From Leucoraja ocellata (Eukaryota), in contig JAWMAR010000148.1 of the NCBI GenBank assembly GCA_036785375.1, forward strand, positions 248,001 through 312,000: a DNA stretch of 64,000 nucleotides, read 5' to 3'. The translations under genes were made by a program, and so were the position numbers. A model generated the notes under the pieces. The model was given only the letters and a program-made list of their open reading frames with translations. It was not told where the DNA came from and did no database searches. Position 1 is the stretch's first letter, and the number at the start of each line of letters is the position of its first letter. This document shows positions 1,440 to 63,657 of the stretch, piece after piece.

Positions 1440-1790
1440 GGCAAGGCTGTGGAAACGAGGCTGCGCATCGCAGCCTGAACTACTGGGAGCCGGCGCCTGC
1501 AGCTCGGCTCCCTGCACACATCGACCCCGAGTTACCAGCTCGGCTTTGGAGGCGGGTACTCTGCATGTGGTCCTGCTTATTTCTCGCTTCAGGTTGGGGA
1601 TGCGCTTGAGATCCCAGTGCTTGGCTCGCTGTCCCGAACGTTTCGCTGCCAGGTGATGTCACATGCCACGTGGATTTTGTTTTGGCTCCAGCTGCAATCA
1701 ACGACAACAAAAGCGGAGGAAAGAAAGGTATCAGTTTGACCGGGCGAGAAGCCGAGATTGGTACTAGGGACCATGTCGCGGTAAAATACA
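1440..1790. promoter_or_regulatory. Small GC/CpG-rich regulatory island
   Basis: CpG enrichment; TGATGTCA, CACATG and CCACGTGG clustered at about 1653-1673; ATTGG (reverse CCAAT) near 1757. Confidence 0.45.
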
Positions 1791-2329: not shown

Positions 2330-2463
2330 TAAAATTACTTTAACGGAGTATTTGGCAGGAGAATGAGAAGACGACTGAGAGAATAGTTTATCTTCAGTTT
2401 TTGGATGAAAAACACAAACCATACCATTAAGAGTAACTGCCGTAGGGAATTTATTGGACCAAG
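2330..2463 (+). other. Putative 5'UTR exon of the upstream transcript (start uncertain)
   Basis: Consensus donor AAG|gtaagt at 2463/2464, upstream of the 4214 acceptor; TATA-like tataaa near 2328. Confidence 0.35.
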
Positions 2464-4213: not shown

Positions 4214-4566
4214 ATTCAAAATGCAAACAGATGAAACCCCCAAGTTCCAATCTTCCCTCAAAGACAATTGCGACAACTGCACAGCTAAGAGGTTTTCGCA
4301 AAGTACAATACCTCAGTCCCTTCATTTATGCCCTCATCAAAAGCAGTTGCTGTTTCAAAATGTCTCGCCTGCATTGGAAGCTGCTCCCAGGCTTCTCATG
4401 CCTGAGGATCATACACTAAAGAAAAGGAGGAGAGTGTTTTCTAGCCCAGAGGTAGCAAGAGAATTTGCACTTCCCCTGCTGTATTTTGCCATTTTTGCTG
4501 TAGCTGTACTGGGTTTACTTCACTGGCATGGCATGATACAGCTATTCCAAGGAAAAAGTTGCAAAG
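4214..4566 (+). CDS. Putative first coding exon: cytoplasmic tail plus type II transmembrane anchor (ATG 4221)
   Basis: Acceptor ttttcag|4214; ORF MQTDETPKF...KKRRRVF...LPLLYFAIFAVAVLGLLHW...KSCK; donor AAG|gtaagc in phase 1, matching the phase-1 acceptor of the G8 exon (G|TG GAT TGC = V-D-C). Same layout as the ATG+TM exon of TMEM2. Confidence 0.7.
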
Positions 4567-7500
4567 GTAAGCTAGACAACATTAAAACTACTAAAATAGA
4601 AGGGAATATAGATACGGTATGGAAAGATGGTGAACATAAGTAGTGAGAGGTGCCATGAAACCAAAAGGAAAGAATAAAAGTAAATAGTACACTAGACTCA
4701 GATCTGTGAGAAATTTCAAACTTGACAAAAGATAAAAAGGGTAACAGGTTCATTACACACAGATGGATGGGAAATTACAAATAAAATAGAGCAGCGGCAG
4801 AACATGACAGTAGAAAATTAGAGTACATTTGGCATCCCAGGAAACTAATAAAACAAAATCAAAGACTGGAATCAACTACGTTCAAGTGAGATAGAAGATG
4901 GTACAGGAAAAATAATGGCACGTAATGACTTACAAATCCCCAGTTCTTGAAGAAAAAAAGCTGTAGTATTCCATATTGTCTTGGTTCAGGAATTAGCCCT
5001 TAATAATAATAATAATAATATCTTTTATTGTCATTGCACATCAGTGCAACGAGATTTAGTATGCAGCTTCCAACCAATGTCAAAAAAATTAAATAATGTG
5101 CGACGTGACCATCTGAGGGAGACAGTCCAGGGGGGACGGGGGGCACTCAGCAGGGCCAGATCAGAGCCGCTATAGCTCTGGGAATAAAGCTGTTTCTGAG
5201 TCTGGAGGTTCGGGCGTAGAAGGCCTTGTAACGTCTGCCGGAGGGAAGTAGTTCGAACAGTCCGTTACAAGGGTGTGCTCTTTTGATTGGAAAACAACAA
5301 ACATTTACTTAAAGAAAAATCTGATTTTTTTTAACATAATAGGTTGTGCAGGATGTGTTAAAATATGTAATAATGCATAATAGCTGAAGGGTAAGATGAT
5401 TAGAGGGATCTAGTTCAGGGTAAGTCCAGCTGGACTGATTGGATTTTCTTTTGGGAAGGGGGGATTTAACGTAGAAGATCGTATTGTTTATGGAAACAAT
5501 TTATACACTTGAAGGCTTTCAACAAGGTTCAATATAATAAACTTTGGAATAATAAAAATCCACAGACTGAAGTGAAGCTATTGACCTAGGTGGAAATTTA
5601 GTTAGAAAGTAAAAGGCAGAAATTATCAATAATTGATATGTACACGTATTTTGAAAAATAACCTTTGGTGTCCCTTAAGTATCTGTGCTGGTGTAATAAA
5701 TGTATATCAATGAATTAGATTATGCAATAGAGACCATGTAGGGACAATCTTTTGTATTTCTGCACAATGTTTAATGATGTTCCTTTGAACAATTTGAAAT
5801 GTTTGGATGCATTACGATATAATACAAATGCAAGTTGCTGCTGTTATGAATATTTCTTGTAAATCTGTCCTGCACAATTTCCCAGGATATTGCCACTGCT
5901 CCAAGTTATAATGTCAAATTATATAAACTAGCCTTGTATTTCCTGTACAGTCAAAGATTAATGGGTGATTTGAACCAGATTTGAAGGATTTGGAAAGGAA
6001 TTGTTAAGGGGGACAAAGCAAATCCTTTTCTGCTAGTCGGGAGTTCAAGGATGAAGGAATATTAGTTTTAACTAGAAGGCAGGCCGCTTGGAAAGTAGTT
6101 CTTATTATTGCAAGTAATAGAAGTGTGGAGTATTTGCCCACGAAACATTATCTCTATTAATAATTTTAAATCTGAGGTTTCTAATTCCAGCTCAGGATAT
6201 TGACTGATATAAAATCAAGACAAGTAGATGGAGTTAGGGCACCAAACATACATAATCTTATAAAATGTTGCAGAATGTCTTATCCCATTTAAAAAAAAAA
6301 AAAAAAAAAGTATTTTCCACGTTTTTAGGACGAAATTCCATCTCAGTGGGCTCCAGAAAAAAACATGCATTATCCATCTATAAGATTAAATTGTTTTCTT
6401 CCTGCTATTATATGCAAGACTGCACTATTGATTTAATTTCCATCTACTACAGGTGACAACCTGGCACCAGTTGTCTTAACCTGAAGAGACCTCTAAACTG
6501 GAAAATCACTGACCTCCAGAAAGCCAGAAGCACCTGAATGCCTTCAAGCTGTGGGAATTATTAGGTGCTCTTATTGTGTCTTCCAAATGTTGATAGAGAC
6601 ATGCAAACCCAACTTGTAAAAGCAGTTTGTTTTGTTGCTTTGTATTGGGCACAGGCCAAAGGGCGTACTACAACAGCTGGGAGCACATTATGTGCTCATT
6701 GTAATGTTTTAGTCGCTGTCTCTGTCGGAGAGTTACCCACCCTAATTAATAACAACACATGAAAAGGCAATATTTCAGCAAATAAACGGTTGCATCATTA
6801 TTTATCTTCAAGCTATTTGCACGGGGTTGGTTAGTATATTGATTAGCAGGCTGCTTATGCAGCTGCCTATATGCAAAACTGCTGAAAACTGATGCTAATA
6901 TTCCAAATGCAATAACACAAAACGCTTGATTATAACGCAGAGTACACCAACTTCCTGTTGCCTCTTCAACATGATTTCAAATTCCAGTGGAAACAAAAAC
7001 AGGAATGAATATTAGTAGCAACATGAAATCGGACTACGTTGTACAAAGCAAGAGAGGTGCTTTTTAATTGAGGCAGGTGGTAGATATGTAGGAAGTGAAT
7101 TTGAGCTAAGAACATTGAAGAATTATTTAACATGGCAGGGTATTGCATGGATGTTCCACTGGAGATCTTGACAGAAGAGATGGAACGTAGACATGCCATT
7201 ATATCCTCAAGAGAATTAAGGAGGTCCATGCTTGAAGTTCGTGTGCTCAAGAGTTTGTGTGTGGTGTTGGAAGAAGCTCCTTGTTTTCACGCCCTGTAAG
7301 TGCTCCTGCAGGTCCATTTTCTTACCACGAGCACCATCTGCCTCAGATGCCACAGTGCATACGTCTGATCACTCAGCTCCTAACAATCTGTATTAATCAG
7401 GACTTGAATGTTGGATTTCATCTTCATGCTTAGAGGATAGCAGAAAAATAAAAATGACATACGATGGCACATTAAGCAACCATCGCTTAAGTCGGGCCAA

Positions 7501-10500
7501 GAGGAAAGAGAAAAACTTAAGAGGGAGAGGTTCAACACCGTTCTGTTGCAAAGAGCAACAGGTTCTGTTGGAAAGAGCTCACCTGAAGCAATCTAAGGAA
7601 GATGCACAATGAATGCATAGTAGCAAGCATGCTCGAGATCTCCAAAATGGAGTATGCAACTAGCTATACTGCAGAGTCTAATCTCTGTTGATTTAGACTT
7701 CATTGCAACACAGATAGCAGCCATAAAGGAATAAAGAATAGCAGCAATAGGAATAACAAAGTCATACAAAAGGGAGGCCGTATAGTTCCTCCAAGCCTGT
7801 CCAGCATTCACTTAGATCAAATATTAGTTGCACAAACCAAATTTTGCCACCTCAGCCTTTAGGCCCTCATATCTTAAAATATAGGCCTGTGCATTCTAAT
7901 TCTAAAACTGTAAAGACAAACCCACTACAGGTGCACAACCTTTTATCCGACAGCCTTGGGACCAGACACTTTTCGTAATTTGGAATTTGTCGGTCTTCGG
8001 AATGGAAATTTTTTAGCGTAGATTTTAATGGCTGGCTCGGTGGTAGAGTGCCCGGCTCATATCCGCAAGGTAGCGAGTTTGCGCCTTGATCCCGGCAGTT
8101 CCTCGGTCGCGAGTTTCAGTCTTCAATGGAGTTTTTTCTTGCAGAATAAATGTCTGTATGAAATGCAGTGTGTTGAATGAATTCCTGAATTTGTAAATGT
8201 GACCGCAGCATTGAATCACCTCCCGCACTCATGTCACCCTAGCGGGGCTACATGCCCTAAGGCGGCTTAAGGCGACATTTTCACACTCTTATATCCGTGT
8301 GCAGCAGAGGCGCCAAAAATGTCTGGTTTCTTCCAGGTAGGCGATATACCCTCCCGGGCAATATACCCTCCACTTCTCTTTTATGAAGGTGAATTAGTTC
8401 CCCTTTCTTCCAGGACCGACCCGAGGTTCCGCTGTCACCTCTGCGGGCCACCATCGGTGAACGCTCACTCAACTTTGTCTTGGGATTCCTACTCTCCCGC
8501 GCAATGTACCCTCACCTCTTTTATGAATGGGGATTTAGTTCCCCTTTCGTCGAGGACCGACCGGAGGTTCCGCTGTCACCTCTGCGGGCCGCCCTCGGTG
8601 AACGTCCTGTCTCCCTGTCCCTGGGATTATAGGGGGCGATCAAACAGCACAATACCCCCCTCCCCCCCACCCCCAACTCCAGAGGAATCCGCTCCCCGAT
8701 GGGCCGCTACGGCGACAAGTGGCAGTTCGCCCACAGCCCGAGAACAAGACGCACCTTGCACACCAACAGCAGCTGCCCCTCTGGAGTTGGAGTGGGGCTG
8801 GGCTGGAGTTGCTGATCTGGGATCTCCGTGCTTGCAGTGGGCCTGGGGGTCGGTGTCCCGATGAGAGGGCGCAGCTCGGGCTGTGGGCGAACTGCCACTT
8901 GTCGCCGTAGCGGCCCATCGGGGAGCGGCTTCTGGTGGTCCCGATGTCTCCTGCTAGTTTGCAGTTTTCCTCTGGAGTTGGAACGGGGCTGGGCTGCTGC
9001 TGGCTGTGGGTCTCTGGGTTCTCCGTGCTTGCAGTGGGCCTGGGGGTCGGTGTCCCGTTGGTCCTGAAGTCTCCGGTGACTGGCATTGCCGACGTGAAGA
9101 CAGTGCAAAGCCCCCACGCCGGTGCAATGAGCGGGGAGCTGGAGAGGGGAGGGAAGGGGGTCACACACATGGCCGGGAAGCAGAGGGGTGTAGGTGGGGT
9201 GAAACTGAAGGGAGCGACAATCTGCTGCTGCCTACCCGCTGAGTTAAAAAATTCCCACGCAAGACTCACGATACACTGTGTTTCGTGTCTACCGTTGGAA
9301 CTTTTAAACTCAGCGGGCAGACAGCAGCATATTGTCAATTATTAACCCTCCCGCGCAATATACCCTCACCTTCTCTTTTATGAATGGGGATTTAGTTCCC
9401 CTTTCTTCGAGGACCGACCGGAGGTTCCGCTGTCACCTCTGCGGGCCGCCCTCGGTGAACGTTTTCAAGGACCTTTTTTCAAGGACTGAAAAAATGTCGC
9501 TATTCGGAGGTTTTCGTTATTTGGATCTTCGGATAAAAGGTTGTGCACCTGTATTTGATATTTCTTTCCTGTCCATGTTATTTTTATGATCTTATAAAAT
9601 GAGATCACTATAGTTCTCATAGTTCTTTCACCATAGTTCTTTGGATATGTAAGACGCCTCTAGAACGCTTTCCTCCTGAGGATAGTGGATTGGCCCTTAT
9701 CATATTTGTGTTCTTGATACTTACTAACTTTTCACCATTTTTGAGGTACTCTATTCTACTATTTTAGGTACAAAAACATGTGCCTTGTCAAGATTGCAAT
9801 CCATTTGTTGCCATTTTTCTCGTTTCCTTAATCTATTAATACCAATTAATTGCTTCTACCTAAACCGCCCTTAATGGCGTGTATTGTGGTGGCGTAGGTA
9901 TTTTCCGATGCAACATACCTTTTGTGACATCTGAAAATTTGGAGATGTGGCTTTCCACTCCTTCATCCATGTATCAACAAATTTTGGGAGTAGTTGTGGT
10001 TCCAACGTAGATCCCTGTTGGATCTACTTACATTCTGCCATTTGGACCCCATGTCCTGATGACAGTATGCCATCCTCGTTGTAATACATGTTGATGTAAA
10101 ATATTCATGATTTTTTTTTTTTTAATATGTTTTCAAGGAATCCTGCTTTGCTTCTGACTTTTCCTAATGTTATAAAAAATATTGTTGCTCGTGTTTTTTC
10201 AAGCTTTTACTGTTCTGTGGCCATTTATTGTTCTTGCAATCTATCCTAGTTGACAGGTTCTGGGTGTTGGTTCTTGTATTGAAAGATGCATTTTCTTTTA
10301 ATTTCATGTTAAGCTCTTAGTCATAGACTACAAATTAGTTGCCAACTGAAACGCTTTCCTCCTGAGGAAACTACACTGGCACTTATCCCATTAAATTCCT
10401 TTATGAATACTTCATACTGGTCTTTGTCTTTTTCCCCCCATTACAACTTATTGCAAACCGTCAATGTGTCAGTATTGAAGTGGGCTTGTCTAAGTCTAGA

Positions 10501-13500
10501 ATACTTCATGGCTGTTTTTTTCTATTTTTATTTTAATTACTATATTGATCTTGAATATACAACTACTTTTAAATAAATATCCATGCACTTTCAGGCTGTT
10601 AATGAAATCTGATACATAGCTCATTACTAATATATCCAGCTATGTTGTCAGCTGTATGAATGTTTTTGTTGCTGACCACTATCATGATAATCCTTGAGAA
10701 ATTTACTTCCTTCCTGATAGGGTTTAACTGCATCTGTATGGAAGTTGAAATCTTACTGCTAATGAATTACTCCACCCTTGTTACACATTTATCTAATCTT
10801 AGAATTTGAGTTTTACATCTTCAAATGCTACCAAAACAATAAACAGTTCCCATCAGCATTTAAAATGATTTTCTATTTCATAATTCTACTTGTAAGGCTT
10901 CCAGTGCCAACTTACCACGGTAACTAGCTTTCCAATGAATTAGTAATTTTAGCATTGACCTCACAATCTCCTCCTCTGGGAATTAGATTTTATTTTGTGC
11001 GTCCACCTCTCAAAATCCTGCACCATTTTTCTTTCAGGCTTTCTAAAAAGGAAACCTGCAAATACTTGCATGTTCTCAATGTCTCAACTCACACTGAACT
11101 GCATGTAGGACTCCGTCATTGACAAATGAGTCAAAATGAGCCTCATCTCCATTGACAAGCATGCATGTATAATTGTCGGCACATTTTTGTGTAATGCTCA
11201 GAAAACACTAATTCAAGGCCAATTGAAGTTCTTGTATTCAAATCTCATTTCAATATATGTTTATAAATAATTTATGTTTAATGGTTATTAATTTTCACTT
11301 CACAGTTGCTGCCTCACAGTCGATTTCTCAAATCTTTACCCTTGCTCCAAATCATAGACTGTATATTGACAAGTACACTTTGTGAAACATTTTCTCAATG
11401 CACTGACCTGCCTCTCTCTCTCTCCAAGTCTACCACCATCAACATCCTAGGGGGTCACCATTGATTAGAAAATCTGCTGGGCCAGACACCCAAGTACTGT
11501 GGCTGCAAGAAAAGGCCAAATGCTGGGTTGATCTTGGCACCCTAATGCTTTCCACCATCTTATTCTTTCCACCATAAACAAAGCGCGTCTGAAGCAGAAT
11601 AAAAAGCTCTCCAATTGCCCGGATGAGTGAAATTCTAGCGATACTTGAGATGCTGTCCAGGACAAAGCAGGCCACTTGACTGGTGCTTATCAACCAACCT
11701 AACTATTTATTCTCTCCACCACTTCCAAACATTTGTGTAGTGTTGTGGCCCTCGAATGCATTGCAGGTGCGTGCCTGGATTACCTCAACAGAGCCTTCCA
11801 AACCTATGAACTCTACCATCAAGAAGGACAAAGCCAATAGCCACGTCACACACAATCCACTCAGTATTACTCTTTCCTGCCTCGTACTACTTCAAGAATG
11901 AAAAGTAGTGCAGCTTCAAATTTCTACAAATGCGTTGTAAGATTGTCTACCTAAGATAATCCTAACAATTAAGATACATTCTGGGGCGACTGCCTCTTGG
12001 TGTTTAAACACAAACTACATCTTAACTTGTTCCTGTATCCTCAATGTAATTTTTTTTTAATTCTGATTTTGGGGACTGGGCACCTGTTGGCAAAGCCATC
12101 ATTTATTGTCCTTCCTTGATTGCTCATTGAGGTGGTGATGAACCACCATCAACTTAGTGGTTTGCTGGGCTGTTTCAAGTGGCATTTAAGAGTCAACCAC
12201 AAGCAGTGATTGAAGTCATATATTGCCCAGATCAGCTAATCCTGGCACATTTCATCTCCTGAAGGACGTTTATGAAACTATGTGTTGTTATGACGTCAAT
12301 AATTCTTATCAATCATGAGGTGAAGGGGGGGGAGGGGGTTTGGACGGGATTTGGAGAGACAGGATCTATCTGCATTTGGAACAGCAAGGACTAATTAGGG
12401 ATAGTCAACATGGCTTTACGCATCGGAACTTGCGTTTCATGAATTTGATTGAGGGAGGTTAGTAAGAACATTGACAAGGGTGGAGTTGTAGATGTTGACT
12501 ACATGGACATTAGCTGTTTTTTTACAATGCCCTGTATGGTAGGCCAGACTGGAAGGTGAGAACACATGGGATCCAGGAATGAGTCGGTGTATTGCATACA
12601 AAATTAGCTTGGTGGAAGGAGTCAGATGGTGACAGTGGTGGATTGTTTTTCAGATTGGAAAGGCTTGTGACCAATGGTGTGCCACAGGATCTACAGTAAT
12701 GTAATGTACTAAGATTATAACGGATCTAGATCAACTGGGAAAGTGTGTAAAGGAATGGCAGATGGAAATTAACTCAAATGAGTGTGAATTAATGCTTTTT
12801 GGTAAGTTAAAGCAAAACAGGAGTATAAAACAGGGCCTTGGGGAGAGTCGTAAAACAGAGAGACCTGGATGCACGGATACATAGTTGCCTGAAAGTGAGA
12901 ACAAGATAGATAAGGTGGTGAAAAGGGCAATAATGCCTTTAAATCTGTTTAATGGTTTACAAAGAAGCAAAATTCTGCTGTGTGATCTACCAACACATTA
13001 ATTCTTAAATTCTCATATTGCTTTGTTACAAAAAAGGGGGAAATGTGATTCAAAAGTGAGACAAAAGGCTTCTATTTTTATAACATCTTCACCACCTGGG
13101 ATGTCCTAAATGACTTGTATCTAACAAGATACTTTTTGAAGGTCTGTTATAATTTTGATGAAGGAACGCAATGGCCCCTGTAACTCTACACCGGCACGAT
13201 GGACACCTGATCTCCTTAAGGCAACCAAGGATGGTCAAATATATTATCTTGTCAAAAATGTAAAATGCTAATAACAAATTAAGTTATCTTGTCTGAACAC
13301 TTCATAATGGGCAAAAGCAGTGGTGAGGGTGGGAGTACCCAATCTCACACCCCTTCTGGGACTGGCCTGTGGTGGAGAAAAAATCTTCCTTAAATCTCTC
13401 TAAAGTTCCCAACATTTACTTCAGGTAATGTATAAGTCTGCCAAGGGTAAACGTTTCTTACTAATCTAATCTATGCTCCTCAGCTTTGTTTCTCAATCAG

Positions 13501-16500
13501 ATCTCTTCCCAGTCTTCTTCATATTGAGGCAAACATTCCCAGCCTTTCCAGGCTCTCCTGTTAGCTGAAACACTCCACCTCAGCCACATACTGGTTAAAA
13601 ATCGTTTTTCCCCCTCGCTAGTGTAATCGCAACCTTTCCATAGTTGTGCCAGCCAAAACTGCATAAAGTATTCCAGCTGGGGTCCAACTAATGTACTGTC
13701 AATCTGATAAAATTATTAATCCAGGACCCCAACTACTTCCTCGAGTGAACATGAGATCTTCTATAGTATCATTTTGAAGGTGAAATAAAAAATTTGCTCA
13801 GTCCCCATGTCAATATTCATGCTTCGGTAAATTCGTAAATCAGATTATGTGCATATTATGGTGGTGCTTATATACATCAAAACAAAATACTGAGCTGTGA
13901 CTTTGTGTTTTTGGACATCTTGATACTGACAAAGATGTGATCATAAATTCAGTCTGTCTTCATTGCATTTTAAAATATATAATAATAATAATAATAATAA
14001 TAAACAGACAAGTATAAGTATTCATTAAGAGTTACAACCCATGTAATTTATTTTTTTAATCTGAATATTTAATTTCTGTTCTTTAGATGGTGATCAACAA
14101 ATTCAAAGCACTCATTGGAAGTTGTCATACTTCACAACCAACTCATCTGACATATACCCACTGCACAAACGATTTGTACGGAGCACAATATCAAGGAAAG
14201 ACAAACAGGAGAAAAGTTTGCTGACCATCTACCAGAGAATGACAGAAGTAAAAGAAATACTACTGCAATGTGAATCTCTTGTAAAAGTGACCAATTATGT
14301 TCTGAGAGATGCTTTGGGGAAAACTTTGGAGTTCCACCCACTTCCAACCTGTGATCAGAGGCTGAATAATCAGATTACCAAAGTTGATCCACTCATTCTT
14401 GTTAGGGTTAAGATAAAACCACAGTTACTTTACCAAGTCTTACACTTCCTGAAAGAGCTAGACTTGCTGGTGGATGCTCATCTAGCAAAAGCGTTCTACA
14501 TTGTGAAAAAGCTAATGGTTATTAAGCAAGAAATGATATTGGGAAAGACAAGTAAAACCAATAATGAACATGGTATGTATTTGTTTATATTTTCTCCTTC
14601 CATGTAGATTTGTTGAGATTCTAAATTTAAAAAACATATGTTGAATTTTTTGATAAATGCGAATCCAAGGAAACACATTACATATTTATTGTGTGGAGAA
14701 TTTCCGATATGTAGGAAGCCACCTGTCAATGATGGTGGACCCTAATTATGAAATTCACCATTGCCATCACCACACACGTACACGGTTATCTGAGGAAAAG
14801 GATGTTTGAAGATCAGACCCTTTTACAAAACTCATAGCTTCCCAGGCAGCATTAATCCTGCTCTTCTTTATGTTTCTGAGTCTTTGATTACCTGCAACAG
14901 TCACATCAAAACACTAAAAGGACACCATCAACACTGTCTCTGCAAACTCCTCCAGATTCACCAGAAAGGTAAGTGAGTCAATGTTAGCACCCTCTCCCAT
15001 GTCAACATTCCCAGTGTTGATGCCCTAGTTACTCAGTTTGCTCCAGTTGAGCAGATCCTGTCATTTGCACGCCCAGCATCAGCCTCTTGCAACGGACACC
15101 CTTTTCCGAGTACTGTCACAGAGAGAGATTACCATCTTGATTGGGGAGAAAGATTCCACGGTGTTCTCAAAACCTGGAAAAGATAAAATTATCACATTGA
15201 CTTCAGGGAATCACTGGCCCATGCTCTTCTCCAAGTAGAGTAAATGCTTTGATTTGGAACTGAGAACCCAGAGTTAATTGTTCAGAACCACATCGAGCCC
15301 AATGTCAAAACCTGAAGAAATACATTACTTCAGAAATTCTCCTCCTGCTCAATACAAAGGCACCATATCTGTTTGAGTCTATAAGTTTCATACCGGCCTC
15401 AGCAATTTGGCCTTCGGAACCTGCAGAATTGGAGTAGCAGCAAGTCATCCTTGCCCTGAGAGATAAAGGATATATCATTATAAGGCTGAAAAACAAATAT
15501 GAAGCAAAATAGTATAATGACAGCTACACAATGTAATTCGATAAATTAATCCTTTAGAAAGCAGAAATATAATGAACTATCCTCTCTAGCTTTGCGGACA
15601 CTTAACCACCTGTAGATTGTGTAGGAAAGAATTGCAGATGCTGGTTTAAATCGAAGGTAGACACGGAATGCTGGAGTAACTCAGCGGGTCAAGCAGCATC
15701 TCTGGAGAGATGGAATGGGTGATGTTTCAGGTCGAGACCCTTCTTCAGACTGATGTCAGGTGAGTGGGCGGGACAGATAGAATATAGTCGGAGACAGTAG
15801 GACTGGTGGGAGAACTGGGAAGGGGGAGGGGATGGAGACAGAGAACGCAGGGGCTATTTGAAGAGTGCCCCTTGTCCTCTCCTTTCACCCCATCAGCCGT
15901 CGCATACAGCATATAATCCTCCAACACTTTCGCCACCTCCAACGGGATCCCACTATTGGCCACATCTTCGCACCTTCATTGTCAGAGGTCCAGCGCAAAT
16001 TGAAGGAACAGCAACTCGTATTTCGCTTGGGTCGCTTACACCCCAGCAGTATGAACATTGACCTCTAACTTGCTTTCCCTCTCTCTCCATCCTCTCCCCA
16101 TCCCATTTCTCCCACCAGTCTTACTGTCTCCGACTACATTCTATCCCTGTCCCGCCCACTGACCCGCTGAGTTACTCCAGCATTTTGTGTCTACCACCTG
16201 TAGATTGTCAAGTTTGTGGGGATAGTTCATTACATTTCCGCGTTCTAAAGGATTAATTTATCAAATTACATTGCATTTATGGTTTGTACAAAAACTGAAG
16301 TCTTAGACATACTGACAGATATTTGCTGACATTTTATTCACTTGTCTAATGGATAATGGATACTTCAGTGTGAAGATGTCACTATTCACAAGCATTTCAA
16401 TTCAGGAATATGCCTTAACAGCCTGTCTCAGAATGGACTGGCATGAAAACTTTCTCCATTTATTTCAATGCAGTGGATCTGCTCCAAAATGTCACAGTAA

Positions 16501-19500: not shown

Positions 19501-22500
19501 TCCTCATTCTACCCTTTTCCGTTGAAAAAAATGATTTCCAGAGTCTGATAGCTTAAAACTTTGATCATTTCTTGACCTTCTCCAAGGCCTCAATTTCTGT
19601 CATGTCCATCAAAGTGAGTAAAATTGAGATACATTTCTAACGTCTGCTGTGAGGGTCTGAACAGCAAACTTCTACTGTCTTCATGGTTTATTCCTCATAT
19701 CATGGCTTATACACAGCGACATTCATTGCATGGTCATAGCACCTTCTGGTTTCATCATTGGCTAATCATACTGTCTGATAGAATGTCATAGCATCCCATT
19801 CACTAAATCCATTTGTGTATGTTATTTTTCTAGATGATTTGTCAGAATGTCCCATGCTTTTCCATGTTATGTCTATCCATTTGCTTTGTTTTTACAGTCT
19901 TAAAATGGCTGAAAAGGAACAGGACCCACAGAAAGTCCTTTAAAGGTAGAGTTCGGCCAAGACCCTTACTTGGTCCAGACTGTGTTATATGTTGTTAGTG
20001 CATGGCAACTCCAGTGTATAACGATCATTTCACTTGCTCAAACATCTTGGGTACAATCCAATTCTTCCCATTTGTTTCATGCTCCATTCTGTTGCACCGA
20101 CAGGACTTGGCACTGAGTAGGTCAATGAGTTTCGTGATACTATTTATCCCGAATAAATAGATTTTGTTGGACAAATCCGGAATAAATTATATACTAATCT
20201 CAAAGTATTACCATCCTTGACAGACAAATTGTTTTGAGTTGTGTTGGACATGATGTTTGATATATAGATAGGACACGAGATGAGACACATCATTAAATTC
20301 ATTCAGACTGCCACCAAGCCATAGCTTCCTTTTTTAATGAGAAAAAAGAGGACTTTTTTAAAAATACTAAAGTCATCAAAAGCACAATCAAGAAATTATA
20401 TTTAGTAGGTGTCCATTCATAGAGAATGACACACATAAATTTACTTTAAAAAGAGGAAATTCCACCCTATCATGAGATAAGCTTGGGTGTACTGATGATG
20501 TTTAAAAAGTGATCGAAAGTTAGTAACATAAAATCAATTGAGGTAGAAATACCTGTCATTTTAATGTGTGTTACATGTGCTGTTAAAAAAAAGATGTCAT
20601 GTGGAATCATTCTGTTAAAATCAAAAGAAAGATAGCCAACTGATTATTTAGTTTATGCAAAACACAAGGTGCTCGAGGAACTGAGTAGGCGAGGCAGCAT
20701 CTGAGGAGGGAATGGATTGGTGGTGTTTTAGATCAAGACCCTTCAGCCAAGACCTGAAACATCACGTCTATTCCTTCCCCAGATGCTGCCTGACCCTCAG
20801 AGTTCCTCCAGCATTTTGTGTTTAGCTCAAGATTCCATTAAGTAAGTAAGTAAGTAAGTCGACATTATCGACAGTTTCCTCAGTCTCCTAGTTATCCAAT
20901 CTATTATTTATTTATTTCAATTAATTATATATATTGCCCCAGCAGGAGAGATGAATCATATATTACTGTAATTTTAAACACACCCACTGATGGTGTGCTT
21001 TCAGCAACTTTCTCTCTACAGTGCTGCTGGTGCTGCCACCTAATGAACAGTCAGAGTACCTTTTCTGAAATAAATGACATCTGGTAGCTTGGCCGTTGAG
21101 ATTATATTTTGCTCCACTTTCAGCAGGCTTACATAAAAGCTGCCCTGAGCAAAACTGTTTCTCACTTAGTATTTACTTTATCCTCCTTGGTAAATAGATA
21201 ATTTGAAGTTTTAGAAACATAAAACGCGTATAAGACCATAAGAGGAATAGATAGGGTAAATGACAGCGTCTTTTCCCAGGGTGGGAGAATCAAGACCAGA
21301 GGACATAGGTTTAAAGTGAGGGGGAAAAGATTTAAAAGGAACTTAAAGGGCAACTTTTTTACACAAAAGGCAGTGGATATATGGAACGAGCTTCCAAAGG
21401 AGGTAGTTGAGGCAGGTGCTTTCATAACGCTTAGAAGATATTTGGACAGGTATATCGATAGGATAGGTATAGAAGGATATGGGTCAAATGCAGGCAGGTG
21501 GGACTACCATAGATGGGGCATCTTAGTTGGCATGGGCAAGATAGACTAAAGGGCCTGTTTCTGTGCTCCATTACTTAGACTGTGCATTCATGTCTTACTT
21601 TAAACATTTCAATATATAATTTAAACCGTTAATAAATTGGCAATATTAGCAATACCAGCCATACTGCTAAGAAATTTAAGTTATTTTAAACTCTGCCCTC
21701 GACATGTCCAATTCAGTGTTGGTCAGCATGGAGAAGTTGGGTTGAAGGACTTGTTTCCATGCCGTATGACTCCATGACTCTATGACTTGATTTAAAAAAA
21801 TAGAAATCATTTGTCCTCTATGTTTTCAAAATAAAAAATATTTGTCATGTTTCATGAGGTCATTATACCTGCTAAAATAAGTATAGTTATTGAAAGCCAG
21901 TGGATATATCAATGTGTAAACCCCACTGTTTGCAACAAAGCTGTAAAGGCTGACTGCTATTTCCAGCCCAATGGAACCCGAGTTAGATGGCAATTGGGAT
22001 TCCACTTATTAAGTGAAAATTGTATGTGCTCGTAATTTATGAATCCATTAATAGCCACTTTTAACTTCTTAATGTTTTCGATGATGATGAATGAATAGTT
22101 CTTTGTTTTGGTAGTGTCTTCAAACTATATTCAAAATAGATAGTTAGCCATTGCGTTATAAAAGATAATCAGTTCCAATTGAAAGGAGATTCCCTCGCCA
22201 GAACAAAACATAACTATGTAGTGATAAACTTATTTTGCATGTGACTTACTGTAAACATATCAATTTCACTGGAAAGTCTATTGATTTAGTGATGAATTAC
22301 CTGTGGCATCTACTTGTTTTTGCTCAGTCAGAATGTTGAATTCATGTCTCACTCCTGAGACCTGAGCAAATGATTAAGAGTGATGCTTCTACACATGACT
22401 AAGAAAGTACTACACAGCCGAAGATGCCACTTTTAAATAAGATATTTAACTGGGGCTCTATCTGTATATCCATTGACACCAAACTGTGTCATTCCATTTC

Positions 22501-25500
22501 TGTGAATTCTTCTTGTACATTGTTTAATTTTACTTCAAAACCAACATCACTCAAATTTCTTGTTTGACTGTTTGTGCAAGGTTGTTGCATGCAGATCAAC
22601 ATAAAACGGCTGTGAAGCTATTGGGCATTCTGAATGGATGAAAGCCACATATTAAATGCAAATTTGTTTTTGCTATTGTTTATGTGAGGAGTTTGAATTA
22701 ATCTCTGAGAGCAGTTTTAATTAGTCTGAATTTTTAACCTTTTACACTTTTTAAGTATTTACTAATCAATATTGATTAAAGTAATAATGAAAAATAGTAT
22801 CTAAAATGGGACATACAAGCTGATTGAAAATCATACTAAGTTTTAATTTGTAAACATTTCCCATAACATCACATTGCTTTCTGGGAATATGTTGTGCTCA
22901 AAATATTTTCTGCATATTCAAAAATAGAGGATTGTGCCCCCTGGTTTCCAGTTACTAGTTTGTTGTCATGGACAAGATGGTATCTATTTAAAGTTACTAG
23001 CAATCTCATACACAAAAGTAAAACATGCTGTAAATCTATACATTTCAAATTTAGCCAAAGAGATTAAACAATGTTCTTCACAATCAGTTTAAACCTTTAC
23101 TTCTGTCTAATATTCCCACAGCTAGTGTTTCTATTTAATATTTATTACCTCCTGTGGAGGGGCATATTTATTATCTACTACTTTAATTTCAGTGAAAACA
23201 AGAACAAGAAATAATGCTGTTGTTTTCAATTTCTGTTCTTTTTCCCCTAGCATTTGCATTTTTTTAATTTTCTACCAATATCAGGTGGTTTAAGACACAT
23301 TGAAGAATTTTTGTATACACGCTAAGGATATCTGTGAAGGCATAATGTTCAGTAATTACTGCTCAGCCTGCCTCACGGTGCCAGGATTGTGAGGAATAGC
23401 TGTCAGATTTAAAGTGTTCCTGGCAAACCACAAACTTGCTCAAAATGACTACCAAGCAGGCAAAAGGCAGCTTGCAGTTAGAAATGAGGATACTACTCTG
23501 GAAGAGTAATAGAATGAAAGAACAAACTTGCATTTATAAAGCACCTTTCCCATCAGTGCTAATTAAAACACTGCATAGCTAATAAAGTGTACAAGTGCCC
23601 CTCGGTAGTTTAGTGGTGTAATGGTTACGTTACTGGACTAATCTATTTAAGCAATTTGAAAATGCTGTATGGAATTTGGTACTAAAAAGCTGGTTTTCTG
23701 CGAAAGTGACCACAAAACCACTGTCATAAAATCATAACTGGCTTACTAATGACTTAACCTGGTATATGATGCAGCCCTAACTAATGCAAGCCACTTGAGT
23801 TGGATCAATAATGATGAACTAAAAATGTTGGCATATTCTGAAAATGAATTAAAAAAAATACAGGTAAGAACTAATTTATACTCAAAATGATCAATAATTC
23901 ACCTTTATTCATAAAGCTAATGTTTTTAGTGAATATAATAGAATATGTGGGCACATTTGTTATCTGGTTCTATAATTAGTGAAATTAAGATCACAGAGTA
24001 ATCACTGGGGGAAAGAATGGCTGTTGGTTTGATTGAGAATCACAATGTGACATTAATACAACAGTGACAACTGGAAAATCTTCATTTATAGCAACATTTC
24101 ATCATGTTAAATGTAATAAATGTAGAAAATGATTAAACATTTTTATCCACATCATATAATATTTATAGGGCTGTTTGTGAGCCGTGTTAAAGCCATCCGG
24201 TTTTCCCTGATAGAAATTCTCCACACTTCTTCCCAACTCGTTTACATTCTAGCAGATGCGTGCATTCATTCACTGGGTATGGGTATTGCGGCTGAGACAA
24301 ATGTTTATGGCCAGTTGGCAGGAAATCAGGGGACCTCCTCTTGCACCTTCTCTCAGGTCGAGCTGTAACAACTGTTTGTAGATCCCTTGACGAGGTAAGA
24401 AAGTGGATGTGGTGCCTGCCCCACTTCCTTGGTCTACTGGTATGTTTCAACCTTCTGTAACTTTGATGAATTGGTATGTGTTTAGGTTGGAGCACAATGC
24501 TGAGATATTAGTTTGACTGGAATATCCATTGATTGAAACATGATGGCAGTAGAGTGAAATAGAAGGAAATGCAACTGCCCTCACAGTTACCGCAACCTGG
24601 GATTGACCCTGACCTCTGCTGCTGTCTGCGTGGAATTTACATATACTTCTGCTGTTTCTAGTTTCTCCCACATCCCAGAAACTTGCTGGTTTGTAGGTTA
24701 ATTGCTCCTGGAGTAGGTTTCTGGGAAGATATTTAGGTGATGACTCAATGAACATATGGAAAGATTGCAGTGAAATAAATAGGGTCTTTGGGTTCTTGGT
24801 TCTTGGGTCCTCTAAAATATTCCAACTGGAATTTAAACTGGAGGTGGCAAAGCCAGGAAGGGTATAAAGAACACACACTATAGAATTTAACATAAAACAT
24901 CCCCACACAGCAGAATCAAAGTTTCCCACTGTGTGGGAAGGCACCAAAGTCTTCTATTTTGTAACATGGCATAGACTTGATAGATGAATGTCCTCCTGTG
25001 TCATAAAGAGGATTAGTGTATTTCTTTTTAGTGGTGATTTGAAATGAGTATGGATTGTGTTGATTTTCTTTTTGCTGGTCTGGGGCAACACAGAAGCATC
25101 GTTTCAGACCTGCATGAGTGCCAATGTATAGTGCTTCTTCATCATGGCTGTTCCATTTTTCAAATAGCCCTGGCATCTCTTCCCTATCACTAGAGACCTT
25201 CTGGGATAACTTCACCTTTCCTCTCCATCTCCTACTATGCCATCGTTCACCATTTGGAATCTGAATTTTTACTAGTCTTGTAAAGTTCCCTGAAATGTTT
25301 TTTTTCTTCTAATTTAAGTATTTTTTAGAATGTTATTGGAAAATAGGTGTCCGTTAATTGGAGAGTATTTAGATTTTAGTTTTGACTTTCAATTGGTTAA
25401 TATAGATTTTGTGTGAATCGGAATGTTGTCTACAAATTCACATGCCTGTATGGATCACAATAATTCATATTGATGATATAATGCATTAGCTCTGCAATTG

Positions 25501-28500
25501 AGAATTAGTTAAGGATAATAAAAGGTATATGAAAACAATTGGAGATGTTCAAGTAGCTGCAAGTAGAAGAAACAGCAATGAAACTTGTGATTGCTAACAT
25601 TCTGTTAGAGATTTAGGAACATTGGTATAATGTGTGTTGAGTTACAGATTTATTCATTGCCAAATTAAAACACGTCCTTAGTTCCAATATAAACTCTCAT
25701 CAGAAGTAGACTACAATGAAGGGAAATGTGTTGTGTTAGAAACCACCCAATCTATGATGTTTATTCTTTGTAACCCTTGTACTCCCTGGTGAGATTTGTA
25801 AATTATTTCTTGTTTCCTTTAAAATGCTCAAGGAATAAAATGTAATCCACAATGTGTAAAGGGACCATAAATGGAATAATGAAACAATCTAGGGCTATAG
25901 GTCAACATTCCTTCACTGAACAGTGGGTGAAACAGCAGCTGATGTGCACCATGTGCCCAGAGGTGAAATCTGTTCGGGGGGGTGAGTTAAGTTGAAAGTT
26001 AAATTTCATGTCAATGCATTGAGTGCCAATGATATTCTCTGAGAGTGAAGAAGAGACAAAAGAAAAGGGAGGGACAAGAAAAATAAAGTGAGTTGAGGAA
26101 GGTTTAGGAGGTGACGAAAGAAAGGGATGGGAAGCAGAGAGAGGGCAAGGCAGGGTGAGGTGAGATTGAGGGATGTAGAAATGAAAGGGAAAAGTGAAAC
26201 CAGTGGGATGTGACCACTGAAGAGAAAGGAAGAAGGGGAATGAGGAAGTGATGTGGGCTGAATAGCAAAGGGGGGGAGGAAAGGTAGCTAATTGGACAGA
26301 GAGTTTGATGGAGGGGTGTGGAGGACTGAGTAGGTAAGAAAGGGTGTGGAGGGCAGGAAGAATTAGGATAAGAAAAGGACAAAGAGATTGAAAGAAAGCA
26401 ATGGAAAGAGTGGGAGTGAAGTATGGAGGGAAGAAAGGAGAGCTGCAAGTAAGGAGGAGTGAAGGATAGAGAATGCTCAGATTATAGGAAGAGGAGGAAG
26501 GGAGAGAAGTGAGAATAGTTGAGAAAATAATGGAGGGAGGGAGGGTGAGGGCAAAGCATGAACACAGGTAGATCATTCATCTTGGTGTTATAGAGTCATA
26601 CAGTGTGGAAACAGACCTTTCAGCCGAACTTGCCCATGGCGTCCAACAAACCCCATTTAAACTAGCCCCACCTGCCTGCTTTTGGCCCTATCCCTCTAAA
26701 CCCATCTGCTCGAACCTGCTTTCATTCAATAAGATCTTGGCTGAACTTTTACTTCAGCACCACTTTTAGAATATAAAACAGTACAGCACAAGAACAGGCC
26801 CTTAGGCGCTCAATGTCTGTGCTGAACATGATGCCAAGACCAACTCTTAGCAGCCTGCACGTAATCCATCCATTATCCCTCCATTACCTGCATATCCATG
26901 TGCCTATCCAAAAGTCTCTTAAATGCCCTATCGTATCTGCCTCAACCACCACTCCAGAAATTCACCACCCTCTTTGTAAAAAGACTTGCCCCATACATCT
27001 TCTTTAAACTTTGCCCCTCTCATCTTAAAGCTATGCCCACTAGTATTTGATTTTTCCATCCTGGGAAAAATATTCTTATTATCCATCCTATCTGTGCCTC
27101 TCGTATGTCCCCATGCAACCTCTGGCATTATCCCCTAATCCCAGGCATCATCTTGGTAAACCGCCTCTCAAGAGTCGAGTCAAGAGAGTTTTATTGTCAT
27201 GTGTCCCAGATAGGACAATTAAATTCTTGCTTGCTGCAGCACAACGGAATATGTAAACATAACACAGAACAGGAGGTAAAAGTTCAGTGTGTCTATATAC
27301 AATAGATCATATATATATATAAAACAGATAAAGTGCAATAGTAATAATAGACTAATTGTTCAGAGCTTGTTTGATGTTGTGTTTAATAGCCTGATGGCTG
27401 TGGGGAAGTAGCTGTTCCTGAACCTGAATGTTCCAGATGTTCACTCTTTCCAAAGTCTCCACATCCTTCCTGACCAGAACTGGGTGCAATACTCCAAATG
27501 CAGCCAAATCAACGTCCTATAAAGCTGTATTATGCCTTCCTGGCTCTTGTACTCAATGCCCTGAGCTATGAAAACAAGCATACCATATGCCTGCTTCAAC
27601 ACTCTATCTACTTGTGTTGCCACTTGTAGGGAGTTGTTGACTTGGACCACAATATCCCTCTGTACTTCAGTGCCATTAATTGTATATTTCCACACATCAC
27701 ATTTACTCCGATTGAATTCCATCCACCACAATCCTCTGTCTTCCATCAGTAAGCAATTTCTGAATCCATATGAACAAGTCATTGTTAATCACATCCACTT
27801 TATTCTTTTAGGTCAGCCTAGCATGGGGGACTTTATTCATATGCCGTACTAACCCATACCCCTTGACTCCCTCGTCCAAATTTGCACAGATTAGGTGGGT
27901 CAAAGGACATTTTTCCGTTCTTTCTGACTCCAAGAATTCAAGCCTCCACACACCTGGGCCCCAGCACCAACCCCTGTGGCACTCCATTAGGTTCAGTCTC
28001 CAAACCTAGCCTAATAACTAATCTCCAGTCAGCAGTATATTGCCATAGTATCACATTCTCCAATGAAACCTTATGAAAATGTGAATACTGCACAACCACG
28101 GGTTTATACTTATGCAATTTTGTTAACTACAATCTCAAATCTGATCTCCCTTTCATAAATCTAAGTTGACTGCTGAATCTGATTATTACTTTCAATGTGC
28201 CCTTCTATCACTTCCATAATAATAGATTCCTACATTTGCTCTGCAACCAATGTCAGGCCAGCTGGTCTTAAACTGGAAGTTGACAATCAATACATCCAAT
28301 ATCTCCACTGCCAGGTTTTACCAAACCTTGAAATGTAAGTCGTGAGTCCCAGGATTTATCGACTTTAGGTTCCATTAATACTTCCATACATTTTTAGTAT
28401 TTTACTGCCTTAAATGGAAATGTATTTGGTGTAATCTATGTATTCATTCTCTAAATATCATATTGGTTGTCTACTGTCAGGCATTTTTAAAGTAGATTTT

Positions 28501-31500
28501 CAACCTATCAGAACCACAGGTGCCTCATGCATTCATATTTGGTTTTGTTTAGTTTTAAGATCTGGGTTGCAATAGAACTAATTCACTTGCAAACTTTTTT
28601 AGATAATATAATCATTCTTCTTTTTACCCACGTTATTAGTTAGTCCTTTCTCATTGCATATTGAATTTAAAATAGCCTGTTTTCTAATTGGTTCCACAAC
28701 ATAGAACTCTAAATTATCCCATCTTATATGGATACTGTGAATACATCCTCCACCCTACTGCTGCTAATTTAATTTGCATGGTATATGCGTAGGTTGAAGT
28801 CCACCATGGTCATTGCATTACAATTGCAATATGGAGTGTGGATGAGGGAGACAGTGACAGTGTGACATTGAATATGAAGATTGTGGAGGGAAAAGGATCA
28901 ATGATCTGAGGTTAATGAGAGGCAACAAAAGGGTTAACTGGAATTGAATGGTGAGAGGTTGTGGTAAGAATGAATGAGGTAGAATGAGATGGAACAGCAT
29001 TTGGCACAACATTTCATGCTGGTGCCTCAATGCTGCAGGGACTTGGGATATATGCTGACCTCGGGTGCTTTCTACAGGAAGTTTGCACATTCTCCCTGTG
29101 ACCACAAGTTTCAGACCAGTGTGTGCTGAAAGGTTAATTGTCTTTTGTATTTTTTTCCTATTGGAGGCAAGTAGCGAGGGGAGAGATAACGAGAAGGAGA
29201 TGGGGTGAGGAGGGAAGGGCTAAAGAGGAGTGTAGGTGTGGTGCAGGTGAGGAGAAGAGAGAGGGGGCATGAGGCGAGTGTGTAATGGTGATGAAAAGGA
29301 GATGGGAGAGGTGCGATAAGGATGTGGAGGGGATGGGTGTGAGCTGCTGGGGGGGGGGGTAAAGTGACGAGGAGGGGTTTGGGATGGTGAGGGGTGTGGG
29401 GGAGGTGAGGGGTGTGCAGGATGTGAGAAGTGTGCGGGAGGGGAGTGGGGGAGGTGAGGGCTGTGATGGAGATGAGGGGTGTGAGGAGGAGGTGCAGGGG
29501 TGAGGGGTGTGGATGGGGAGATGAGTGTGAGGTGAGGGGTGTGGAGAGGGAGTCAGGGGTATGGAGAGGGGTGTGGATGGGGAGATGAGGAGGATGTGTG
29601 ATGGATGTGAGGGGTGTGGAGATGAGGCGAGGTGCAGGGGTGTGGATGGGGAGATGAGTGTGTAGGATGGGTGAGGGGGTGTGGAGAGGAGGTGAGGTGC
29701 AGGGGTGAGGGGTGTGGATGTGGATGGGGAGGATGTGTGAGGGGTGTGAGGGGTGTGGGGAGGAGGTGAGGTGCAGGGGTGAAGGGTGTGGATGGGGAGA
29801 TGAGGAGGATGTGTGAGGGTTGTGATGGATGTGAGGGGGTGTGGAGAGGGAGTCAGGGGTATGGAGAGGGGCGTGAAGGATGTGGTGGTGTCGAGGCGGT
29901 GTTGAGCTGGGATGGGGCGGCCGGTTTGGGTTCCCCCGAGGGCCGGAGTCTCCCCCTCGGCAGGCGGGCGGCAGGCGCTCGCTGTCACAGAGGGCGGACC
30001 GAGCCAATGAGCACCGGGAGGCGGGGCGGCGGTGCGGTGTCGCCGGGCGAGGTGAGCGGCCAGTGAGCTGGGTATAAATAGAGCTGTGACTGCCGGCTGC
30101 GGGCAGTCGGCGGCGAGCGGCGGCGGCGCTGGGACAGACTGACAAGACTGACTGACACTCACCAGCAGACAGCGATCACAGCTTCGCAATCCGCGGCGGA
30201 CAGACGGACATCAGCGGCCGGAGCCTGGGAAACGCTGCTCCCAACTTGCTACAGGTGCGCACTACCCGGGTGGGTGTTGTGGTGAGCGGGTGGTCGGGAC
30301 CAGGTTGGCAGGGGGTGTTCTGCGTGGCGGTAGTGTGTGGGGCAGTACTGGTACAGGTAGTTGTGCTGGCTGTAGTACGTGCCAAACAGTTTCTGATTTC
30401 TAGGCTTCTAGTTTGTATTTTGTGCTGCCTTCTCCATTGTGATTCTCCATCAACCACCCGCCTGGTCCCTCTACCAAAATAAGTATGGATTATCTATCAA
30501 TAATCCATGGCAAACCTACCCCTCTTCCGAGGGACGTTGACAGCCTGAAACTAGGATTAAACTCAAAGCATCAGCGGCAGGATGAGCCGGAGCCCATTTG
30601 TGCACCGCACACTGGTTTATACAACAGGTGTGTAACTTTCTTGTTATCAACATTTGAACACTATATATTAAGAAATTGCAACCACATGTGATAGTGAATG
30701 AGAATTCTCTTTTAGTGGATTGCCCAGATAAGGCCCCATATTTATTACACTGGAACCCTGGACACCATGAAAATAAGAAGGTTAAGATTGGACGGGGAAT
30801 GTTCCTAAAACTGGAGTCTTCTGCCTCGCTACATTCCATTGTTATAGAGAACGGGGGTAAGTTTAATTTGATAAATGTCTTTCATACTTGTAAACAATTC
30901 CCAAATGAAACTATTTTTCTTCTTCGGGGCTCTGTTTTATGCGTAGTGGGGAAGGTGAGGGCTGTCACCTTCCTGACAGAATAGATGCTGCCTTTATTTA
31001 CAGTTGGAAAGTGCGGGTGATGCTAAATGCATCTGAGTTTGGGATTAGTTTTGTGATGGGATTTCTGTTCAAGGTGGTAAAATCGCCCCTGGTGACCATC
31101 GGTGACCTTACTATGGACATTATTTTGCAGGTAAACTCGTGTTTAACGATGCGCCGAAATCCCCTATCACTCTGAAAGCTCGCTATATTCTGATCAGGAG
31201 CGGGGGCGAGCTGCACATCGGAGCGGAAAAATGCCCCTATATTTCCAGCGCCACTATTACCCTCTACGGAAAGTCGACAGATGCATTAAACGTGGAGCAT
31301 TTTGGTCAGAAGTTCATTGGAGTGGACAAAGGTGGTGTTTTGGAATTGCACGGAAGGAAAACCTTGTCTTGGACATTTTTAGCCCGAACTCTCTACCCGG
31401 GTGGCTTGCAGTCTGGGGCTTACCGCTTTGACAGGTACTGGGGCAGCAGGGGTATCAACATCAGGGTGATAGATCCCGGCACGGCCAAGGTGCTCGCAGC

Positions 31501-63601: not shown

Positions 63602-63657
<56 letters not shown>

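Follow-up and report, generated by a model that had tools for sequence, protein, structure and literature searches.

Locus and gene identity

The window analysed here is a stretch of 64,000 nucleotides (nt) from the skate Leucoraja ocellata (contig JAWMAR010000148.1, positions 248,001 to 312,000, forward strand). It carries exons of a CEMIP2-like gene, related to TMEM2 (CEMIP2) and CEMIP. In the intron that precedes the first exon of the G8 domain (the G8 exon, acceptor 30716), it also carries a CpG-island promoter at about 30.1 kb, which is the promoter of the next gene, CEMIP. Positions are those of the window; positions beyond its end are given as window-equivalents.

The gene order, deduced from homologue mapping of the genome contig, is ABHD17C, CEMIP2-like, CEMIP. 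CEMIP lies downstream of CEMIP2-like, in tandem and on the same strand (54-92% protein identity to CEMIP per exon). The closest match of the G8 exon, among the matches listed, is an Amblyraja 'cell surface hyaluronidase-like' protein (97%). Proteins of relatives map to exons 2405, 4214, 14087, 19898 and 30716, to the window end, and then to about 74230. The exons upstream of 30716 are part of CEMIP2-like because these proteins run through them, as the sequence-only reading of the window had supposed. A separate upstream gene was ruled out since the same proteins span these exons and the G8 body. ABHD17C starts 14 kb 5' of the window and was named by homologue search; a partial exon of it gave no match in Pfam or PDB searches.

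A quick tree of 29 proteins (midpoint root, no outgroup, no shark TMEM2) gave three clades, each with an SH-aLRT (Shimodaira-Hasegawa-like approximate likelihood ratio test) support of 100: CEMIP (5 proteins), TMEM2 (4) and CEMIP2-like (20, from chimaera to birds). By branch length, CEMIP2-like is closer to TMEM2 than CEMIP is. It does not group with TMEM2 in this tree and is not its orthologue by this test; a better TMEM2 match lies on other contigs of the same genome (63-66% to TMEM2 vs 52-54% to CEMIP2-like). The product includes G8, two ILEI (GG), CEMIP beta-helix and X domains (Pfam; window exon and the near-identical protein P0130). The WxxW domain, present in shark CEMIP, was not found by Pfam in P0130, so that CEMIP2-like does not qualify as a CEMIP orthologue either. 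Judged by tree and domains, CEMIP2-like is a third paralogue of the G8 hyaluronidases. Long and short models of it are already auto-annotated (RefSeq) in sharks, rays, chimaera, gar, sturgeon, lungfish, amphibians, reptiles and birds. No mammalian member was found in the best 120 of 158 matches, nor in a second list of 24; this is a weak negative. Two database models, P0026 of the toad Bufo and P0151 of the catshark Scyliorhinus, resemble CEMIP2-like/CEMIP fusions; they show the tandem order in these animals, and that annotation there is confused.

Promoter and first exon of CEMIP

The CCAAT/GC/TATA promoter in a CpG island noticed in the sequence-only reading has all its elements: CCAAT at 30004, four GGGCGG boxes (29915-30024) and TATAAA at 30073. 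The island has 66% GC and a CpG observed/expected ratio of 0.88. None of 2000 dinucleotide shuffles produced the TATA motif. The promoter lies 610-640 nt 5' of the G8 exon. Between 31900 and CEMIP, the only CpG island is at 60601-61100, over a retroelement-like open reading frame (ORF); no GC box was found in 74229-79150. No second promoter copy nearer CEMIP was found, the sole other copy found being that of the second assembled copy of the locus. An imperfect, G-rich tandem repeat of about 500 nt (29381-29884, GC skew 0.70) lies directly 5' of the promoter; it is a possible G-quadruplex or pause element.

Four contig sets (runs) from related skates were aligned to 29890-33000, and four runs were also aligned to the CEMIP signal-peptide exon (exon 2). 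The runs were flagged 'RNA?' by guess and none is recorded as RNA; GT..AG joints, found within the CEMIP2-like body in all four, argue for RNA. CEMIP exon 2 was probed for a joint to exon 1 because of the human gene plan and of the lack of a CpG island or GC box before the skate exon.

A contig of run X2 (814 nt, depth 7.84) covers 30176-30254 and continues for 735 nt outside that stretch. The same contig lies on CEMIP exon 2, where its loose end corresponds to 30222-30251. Contigs of X5 (119 nt loose) and X9 (27 nt loose) end in an exon-1 motif that occurs once in 234 kb, at 30240. The 30254 to 79050 joint is thus found in three of the four runs, from three studies and three organisms, each with its own substitutions. 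The X8 contig begins inside CEMIP exon 2 and X1 has no cover on 30105-30627; both are hence uninformative on exon 1. In all four runs aligned to it, contigs on CEMIP exon 2 continue to exon 3. The promoter at about 30100 is CEMIP's own and its exon 1 splices into CEMIP.

CEMIP intron 1 extends from 30255 to window-equivalent 79049 (48,795 nt, GT..AG ends). Because 30254 joins 79050, this intron holds CEMIP2-like from G8 to the stop codon. Transcripts of this promoter do skip the membrane-anchor exon, as had been proposed, but the contigs mostly skip the whole CEMIP2-like body as well. The expectation that the promoter mainly serves the enzyme gene in which it lies did not hold: exon 1 goes to CEMIP in 3/4 runs and to G8 in 1/4 (X9). 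A predicted junction 30254-30404 was not seen; contigs go from 30254 to CEMIP exon 2 or run unspliced to 30627. In Carcharodon RefSeq, CEMIP is isoform X1 and the short CEMIP2-like protein is isoform X2, with consecutive accessions, which suggests that the same exon is shared by the two genes in a shark.

Table 1. Features of the CEMIP2-like/CEMIP locus, sorted by position.
Feature	Position	Strand	Basis or remark
CEMIP2-like alternative first coding exon A, ATG to donor	1663..1727	+	N-termini of P0121/P0130; in frame with 4214
CEMIP2-like alternative first coding exon B	2405..2463	+	100% match to P0001/P0134 residues 1-20; in frame
Exon encoding a polar N-region and, at nt 4464-4520, the hydrophobic segment (either signal anchor or cleavable signal)	4214..4566	+	AG/GT ends, phase 1
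Stem exon: furin-like K-R-x-x-R motif (14167-14181), helical domain of about 100 amino acids, invariant Cys (14269, 14350)	14087..14572	+	
In-frame cassette exon, 48 nt	19898..19945	+	Present in P0130, absent in P0128
CpG-island CEMIP promoter in the CEMIP2-like intron before G8	29880..30104	+	GC boxes, CCAAT, TATA
CEMIP noncoding exon 1, without ATG	30105..30254	+	predicted 5' end (by TATA position); contigs extend to about 30133
Read-through extension of exon 1 to second donor 30627, spliced to G8 exon; in-frame ATG 30582	30255..30627	+	X9 contig, P0124
First G8 exon; acceptor common to long and short forms; in-frame ATG 30799	30716..30856	+	
Rest of CEMIP2-like body (G8, ILEI, beta-helix, domain X), ends at window-equivalent 74230	31131..64000 in window	+	
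CEMIP exon 2, ATG and signal peptide	G000:C148:327050-327214 (window-equivalent 79050-79214), beyond window	+	

The short read-through form

In X9, a 435-nt contig runs unspliced over 30234-30627 and continues on 30716-30744, according to record coordinates and bin depths. The bin depths observed (4.75 and 2.4) support a 30627-30716 joint, for which 4.75 and 2.39 were computed. By these data, one 5' exon is spliced into two different coding genes, as in promoter-sharing or interleaved gene pairs. Both X9 branches begin at about 30225, with a depth of 39.7 for the one to CEMIP and 10.8 for the read-through; the G8 contig has a depth of 45.9. The ratio 39.7:10.8 is a mere hint that read-through is the minor branch, because contig depth is a poor measure and a single run is concerned. 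An unspliced piece of X5 covers 30497-30682 (depth 2.3).

The start at ATG 30582 foreseen in the sequence-only reading is in frame through 30627|30716, and its start peptide is that of Amblyraja RefSeq isoform X6. Two upstream ATGs (uATGs) precede it: 30485 (strong, out of frame, overlapping 30582) and 30507 (upstream ORF, uORF, of 13 codons). At 30545, X5 and X9 carry a 1-nt insertion that shifts the uORF frames; by arithmetic, neither uATG becomes in frame with 30582. The frame opened at 30485 (MDYLSII) was considered as a TMEM2-like N-terminus and rejected, being out of frame and 52 amino acids (aa) long.

No secretion signal was found on this form (maximal Kyte-Doolittle score KD12 of 0.54 in the first residues of P0124). 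The form has 26 Cys and 5 sequons. In the TMEM2 ectodomain, 20 of 24 Cys are engaged in 10 disulfides (PMC10206443). Among the 54 cluster members listed (15 of 24 for the skate cluster), ten short chondrichthyan NCBI models, from eight species, start at or in G8. Only one of the ten uses MSRSPF (ATG 30582), so that the conservation of this start in other chondrichthyans, on which the sequence-only reading placed a test, was not found. The nine others start inside G8; ATG 30799 is the equivalent of the start of most short models in relatives. Short models of gar, frog and turtle have unrelated, non-hydrophobic starts. The short CEMIP2-like form is likely a by-product of splicing across the paralogue, because it has no signal, an unconserved start and two uATGs. 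The lack of a signal and of a conserved start also speaks against a second form made soluble by a switched start.

The long form

Exon 4214-4566 had been taken as the only exon encoding a transmembrane segment. It does encode the sole strongly hydrophobic segment (KD19 2.53; best downstream value in P0130, 1.59), in frame to G8, but it is an internal exon, the first coding exons being 1663 and 2405. By frame check it joins both 14087 and 30716 in frame. A basic cluster precedes the segment, as it does in type II anchors, and about 200 aa separate the segment from G8. The uncharged run is 18-33 aa long in chondrichthyans and 12-17 aa in 5/6 birds/turtle, where it is followed by small residues as in a cleavable signal. 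Within 4464-4520, both assembled copies encode a Pro where the closest annotated skate proteins have a His. The exon set of the sequence-only reading stands with one addition, the cassette exon 19898-19945. Its donor 14968, proposed to join 30716, was discarded: it has no protein support, and extension of exon 14087 to 14968 meets stops. Contigs of X1, X2 and X5 (3/4 runs) carry 856-1039 nt of other sequence before the G8 exon, a length that would fit the long form (predicted 839-887 nt plus first exon). Their aligned starts, 30715 (X1) and 30714 (X2, X5), would be compatible with donors 14572 and 19945.

Furin cleaves R-x-x-R. This motif is found at one aligned position in 16/16 chondrichthyan and 8/9 frog sequences, mostly not as the optimal R-x-K/R-R, and somewhere in 11/19 bony vertebrates. 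In shuffled stems, R-x-x-R is expected anywhere in 4.2 of the 16 chondrichthyan sequences, which are related and not independent. By its sequence, the long form is likely cut there, releasing the helical domain and the ectodomain; the 'anchored' form may thus not be simply anchored and may be shed.

The domain encoded by exon 14087, with its two invariant Cys, was found only in CEMIP2-like proteins. It is predicted to be helical (model with a predicted local distance difference test, pLDDT, of 81) and gave no Pfam match above cut-off, no atlas match and no Foldseek match at E<=0.001. Its best structural match (Z 6.8, root mean square deviation 2.3, 63 aligned) is at helix-hairpin level only. 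A phmmer match, P0175, was dropped as a repetitive, unrelated protein. Four proteins of 231-284 aa (P0238, P0240, P0241, P0171; turtles among them) cluster with CEMIP2-like and apparently have the signal and helical domain only; P0171 is the sole one judged by its sequence. They are either split models or a real standalone product.

R265, D273 and D286 are needed for the reported TMEM2 activity (PMC10206443). Their equivalents are kept (R471, D479 and D492 in P0130). His248 and Ala303 have been linked to mouse TMEM2 activity (PMC10276149); CEMIP2-like has Tyr and Arg at these positions and matches neither mouse nor human TMEM2. Hyaluronan-degrading activity is disputed even for TMEM2. CEMIP2-like is a putative hyaluronidase by its domains and catalytic-residue equivalents.

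Other features of the region

The intron after exon 4214 includes a CpG-rich patch with direct and inverted repeats (8200-9600). Introns also carry ORF fragments that we take to be retroelement-like (21223-21546, 37804-38331, 55647-56144, 60571-61005). A second, inverted copy of the locus is found on the minus strand of the same contig (G000:C148:~1,348,000-1,373,000). It is 99.4-100% identical at exons 4214 and 14087 and at the promoter, with shorter exon spacing, and is probably an unpurged haplotype. At about 377,700-402,000 of this contig, the CEMIP copy breaks off after a gap of 200 N and about 23 kb (CEMIP2-like 3' and CEMIP 5' exons) are repeated with 97-98% identity; this is likely a mis-joined haplotype.

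Interpretation

It is highly probable that CEMIP is expressed from the promoter at about 30100 by splicing of exon 1 over 48.8 kb that hold the CEMIP2-like body from G8 to stop, and that some transcripts enter G8 to give a likely signal-less by-product. Promoter 1 (5' exons at 1.6-2.5 kb) would make the full CEMIP2-like protein, which would be routed to the endoplasmic reticulum (ER) and secretory pathway and likely be shed. Promoter 2 (30.1 kb) would have CEMIP as its main product, made by splicing across the paralogue; at times it would also give a truncated CEMIP2-like RNA. CEMIP splicing would have to ignore about 20 paralogue exons and the paralogue poly(A) site, so that occasional capture by the nearest acceptor would be expected. 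The captured mRNA would translate poorly because of the two uATGs, and the short protein would not reach hyaluronan because it would be unable to enter the ER. The locus does yield surface-type and secreted-type proteins from two promoters, as proposed in the sequence-only reading; it does so via two different genes and not by promoter choice within one.

Several points weigh against this reading. The 30627-30716 joint, predicted beforehand, has the coordinates and bin depths of one run in its favour and is absent from the joints listed. Amblyraja retains ATG 30582, which has a purine at -3. Short models recur in eight chondrichthyan species and in gar, frogs and turtles, which could reflect selection and not leak. 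Contigs give neither the transcription start site, nor the strand, nor the level. For the long form 5' of 30716, the evidence comes from proteins of relatives, to which the contigs add only the 856-1039 nt mentioned above. The furin-like motif is no more than the minimal R-x-x-R, and neither the 5 birds and 1 turtle nor gar and Xenopus have it. The loss of CEMIP2-like in mammals rests on absence from partial match lists.

The recurrence of short models, from chimaera to turtles, would also be expected if the choice between donors 30254 and 30627 were a regulated switch, yielding either secreted CEMIP or a CEMIP2-like form kept inside the cell, or if it supplied a regulatory RNA sink to adjust the dosage of CEMIP. 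One run (X9) has both joints, the in-frame ATG preserves a complete G8 domain in skates (P0124), and different genes that share a promoter are documented (PMC2568002). Such a switch is nevertheless improbable: the start and N-terminus are unconserved (1/10 models), the uATG at 30485 is strong and out of frame, and a disulfide-rich fold would be made without a signal. The title of one paper further states that an N-terminal signal is required for CEMIP trafficking and hyaluronan depolymerisation.

That the promoter is a second one of CEMIP2-like itself, switching one enzyme between membrane-anchored and soluble forms, agrees with its place just before the G8 exon and with the existence of a short transcript and a predicted ATG. 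It is largely refuted already by the exon 1-CEMIP joint (three runs, vs one for entry into G8) and is now very improbable. No other CEMIP promoter is evident and human CEMIP shares the promoter architecture; besides, the short form, having no signal, would not leave the cell by secretion, and the long one may be released by shedding. The joint could in turn be an artefact, either of chimeric contig assembly or of duplication in the genome assembly, since the evidence consists of contigs and not reads and the assembly has near-identical duplicates of the region. This is hardly credible: the same joint, with exact GT..AG ends, comes from three organisms and three studies, each with its own substitutions, and agrees with the human gene plan.

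Beyond the assignment of the promoter to CEMIP, a wider scenario can be put forward tentatively and is rather doubtful. Jawed vertebrates would ancestrally have had the interleaved arrangement, with the CEMIP promoter inside the third paralogue. The human 94-kb intron would be its scar, and the lost gene would have encoded a furin-shed hyaluronidase with a helical pro- or adaptor domain. Donor choice (30254 vs 30627) and transcriptional interference would couple the outputs.

Comparison with known systems

Human CEMIP (KIAA1199/HYBID) starts with a noncoding exon, which a 94-kb intron separates from the AUG exon; its promoter, with a TATA box at -31 and a GC box, lies in a CpG island (PMC3435267). 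The skate gene is alike in its noncoding exon 1, its TATA and GC boxes in a CpG island and its very long intron 1 before the AUG/signal-peptide exon. ABHD17C is a neighbour in both, its adjacency outside the skate being drawn from a chicken gene list and cattle single nucleotide polymorphism positions (PMC11188527, PMC10035218). They differ in that the skate intron holds an intact, expressed paralogue body, none being mentioned for human in the excerpts of PMC3435267. AP-1 drives the human promoter, whereas no exact AP-1 consensus was found in skate 29880-30110.

TMEM2/CEMIP2 shares with CEMIP2-like the G8, two ILEI, beta-helix and X domains, the equivalents of R265/D273/D286 and one N-terminal hydrophobic segment. 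CEMIP2-like differs by its separate clade, by the Tyr/Arg substitutions and by some 200 residues more in the stretch that separates the hydrophobic segment from G8, where the furin-like motif and the helical domain lie. In promoter-sharing pairs such as CPNE1/RBM12, splice choice likewise leads from a single promoter and 5' exon to two coding sequences (PMC2568002). The skate pair differs: its members are tandem paralogues; the upstream one, which has separate 5' exons for its full protein, harbours the shared promoter; and the second of the two products is a truncated one.

The RefSeq 'cell surface hyaluronidase CEMIP2-like' models correspond to the same gene; their protein names tell nothing of the nesting, of where the short forms come from, or of the helical domain and furin-like motif. 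For humans, two G8 hyaluronidases are named in a review (PMC11275217). A Xenopus table lists a 'transmembrane protein 2-like' gene, possibly CEMIP2-like, among presumptive Six1/Eya1 targets (PMC5035141). No third paralogue or CEMIP/CEMIP2-like nesting was found in the literature searched (subscription journals and supplements not covered).

Significance

The promoter is reassigned, and the locus has a rare layout: a first intron that encloses the catalytic body of a same-strand tandem paralogue. This layout raises the question, open to test, of how splicing and polyadenylation bypass about 20 exons and a poly(A) site. It would also account for the 94-kb first intron of human CEMIP, a cancer- and hearing-linked gene, as a remnant of the interleaved arrangement after loss of CEMIP2-like. 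The third G8 hyaluronidase, annotated in many non-mammalian vertebrates, combines a candidate site for shedding with a domain that belongs to no known family. It could help to clarify if TMEM2-type proteins cut hyaluronan, and by what means. For either gene, CEMIP or CEMIP2-like, knock-outs and expression counts obtained in fish, frog and chick are open to confounding.

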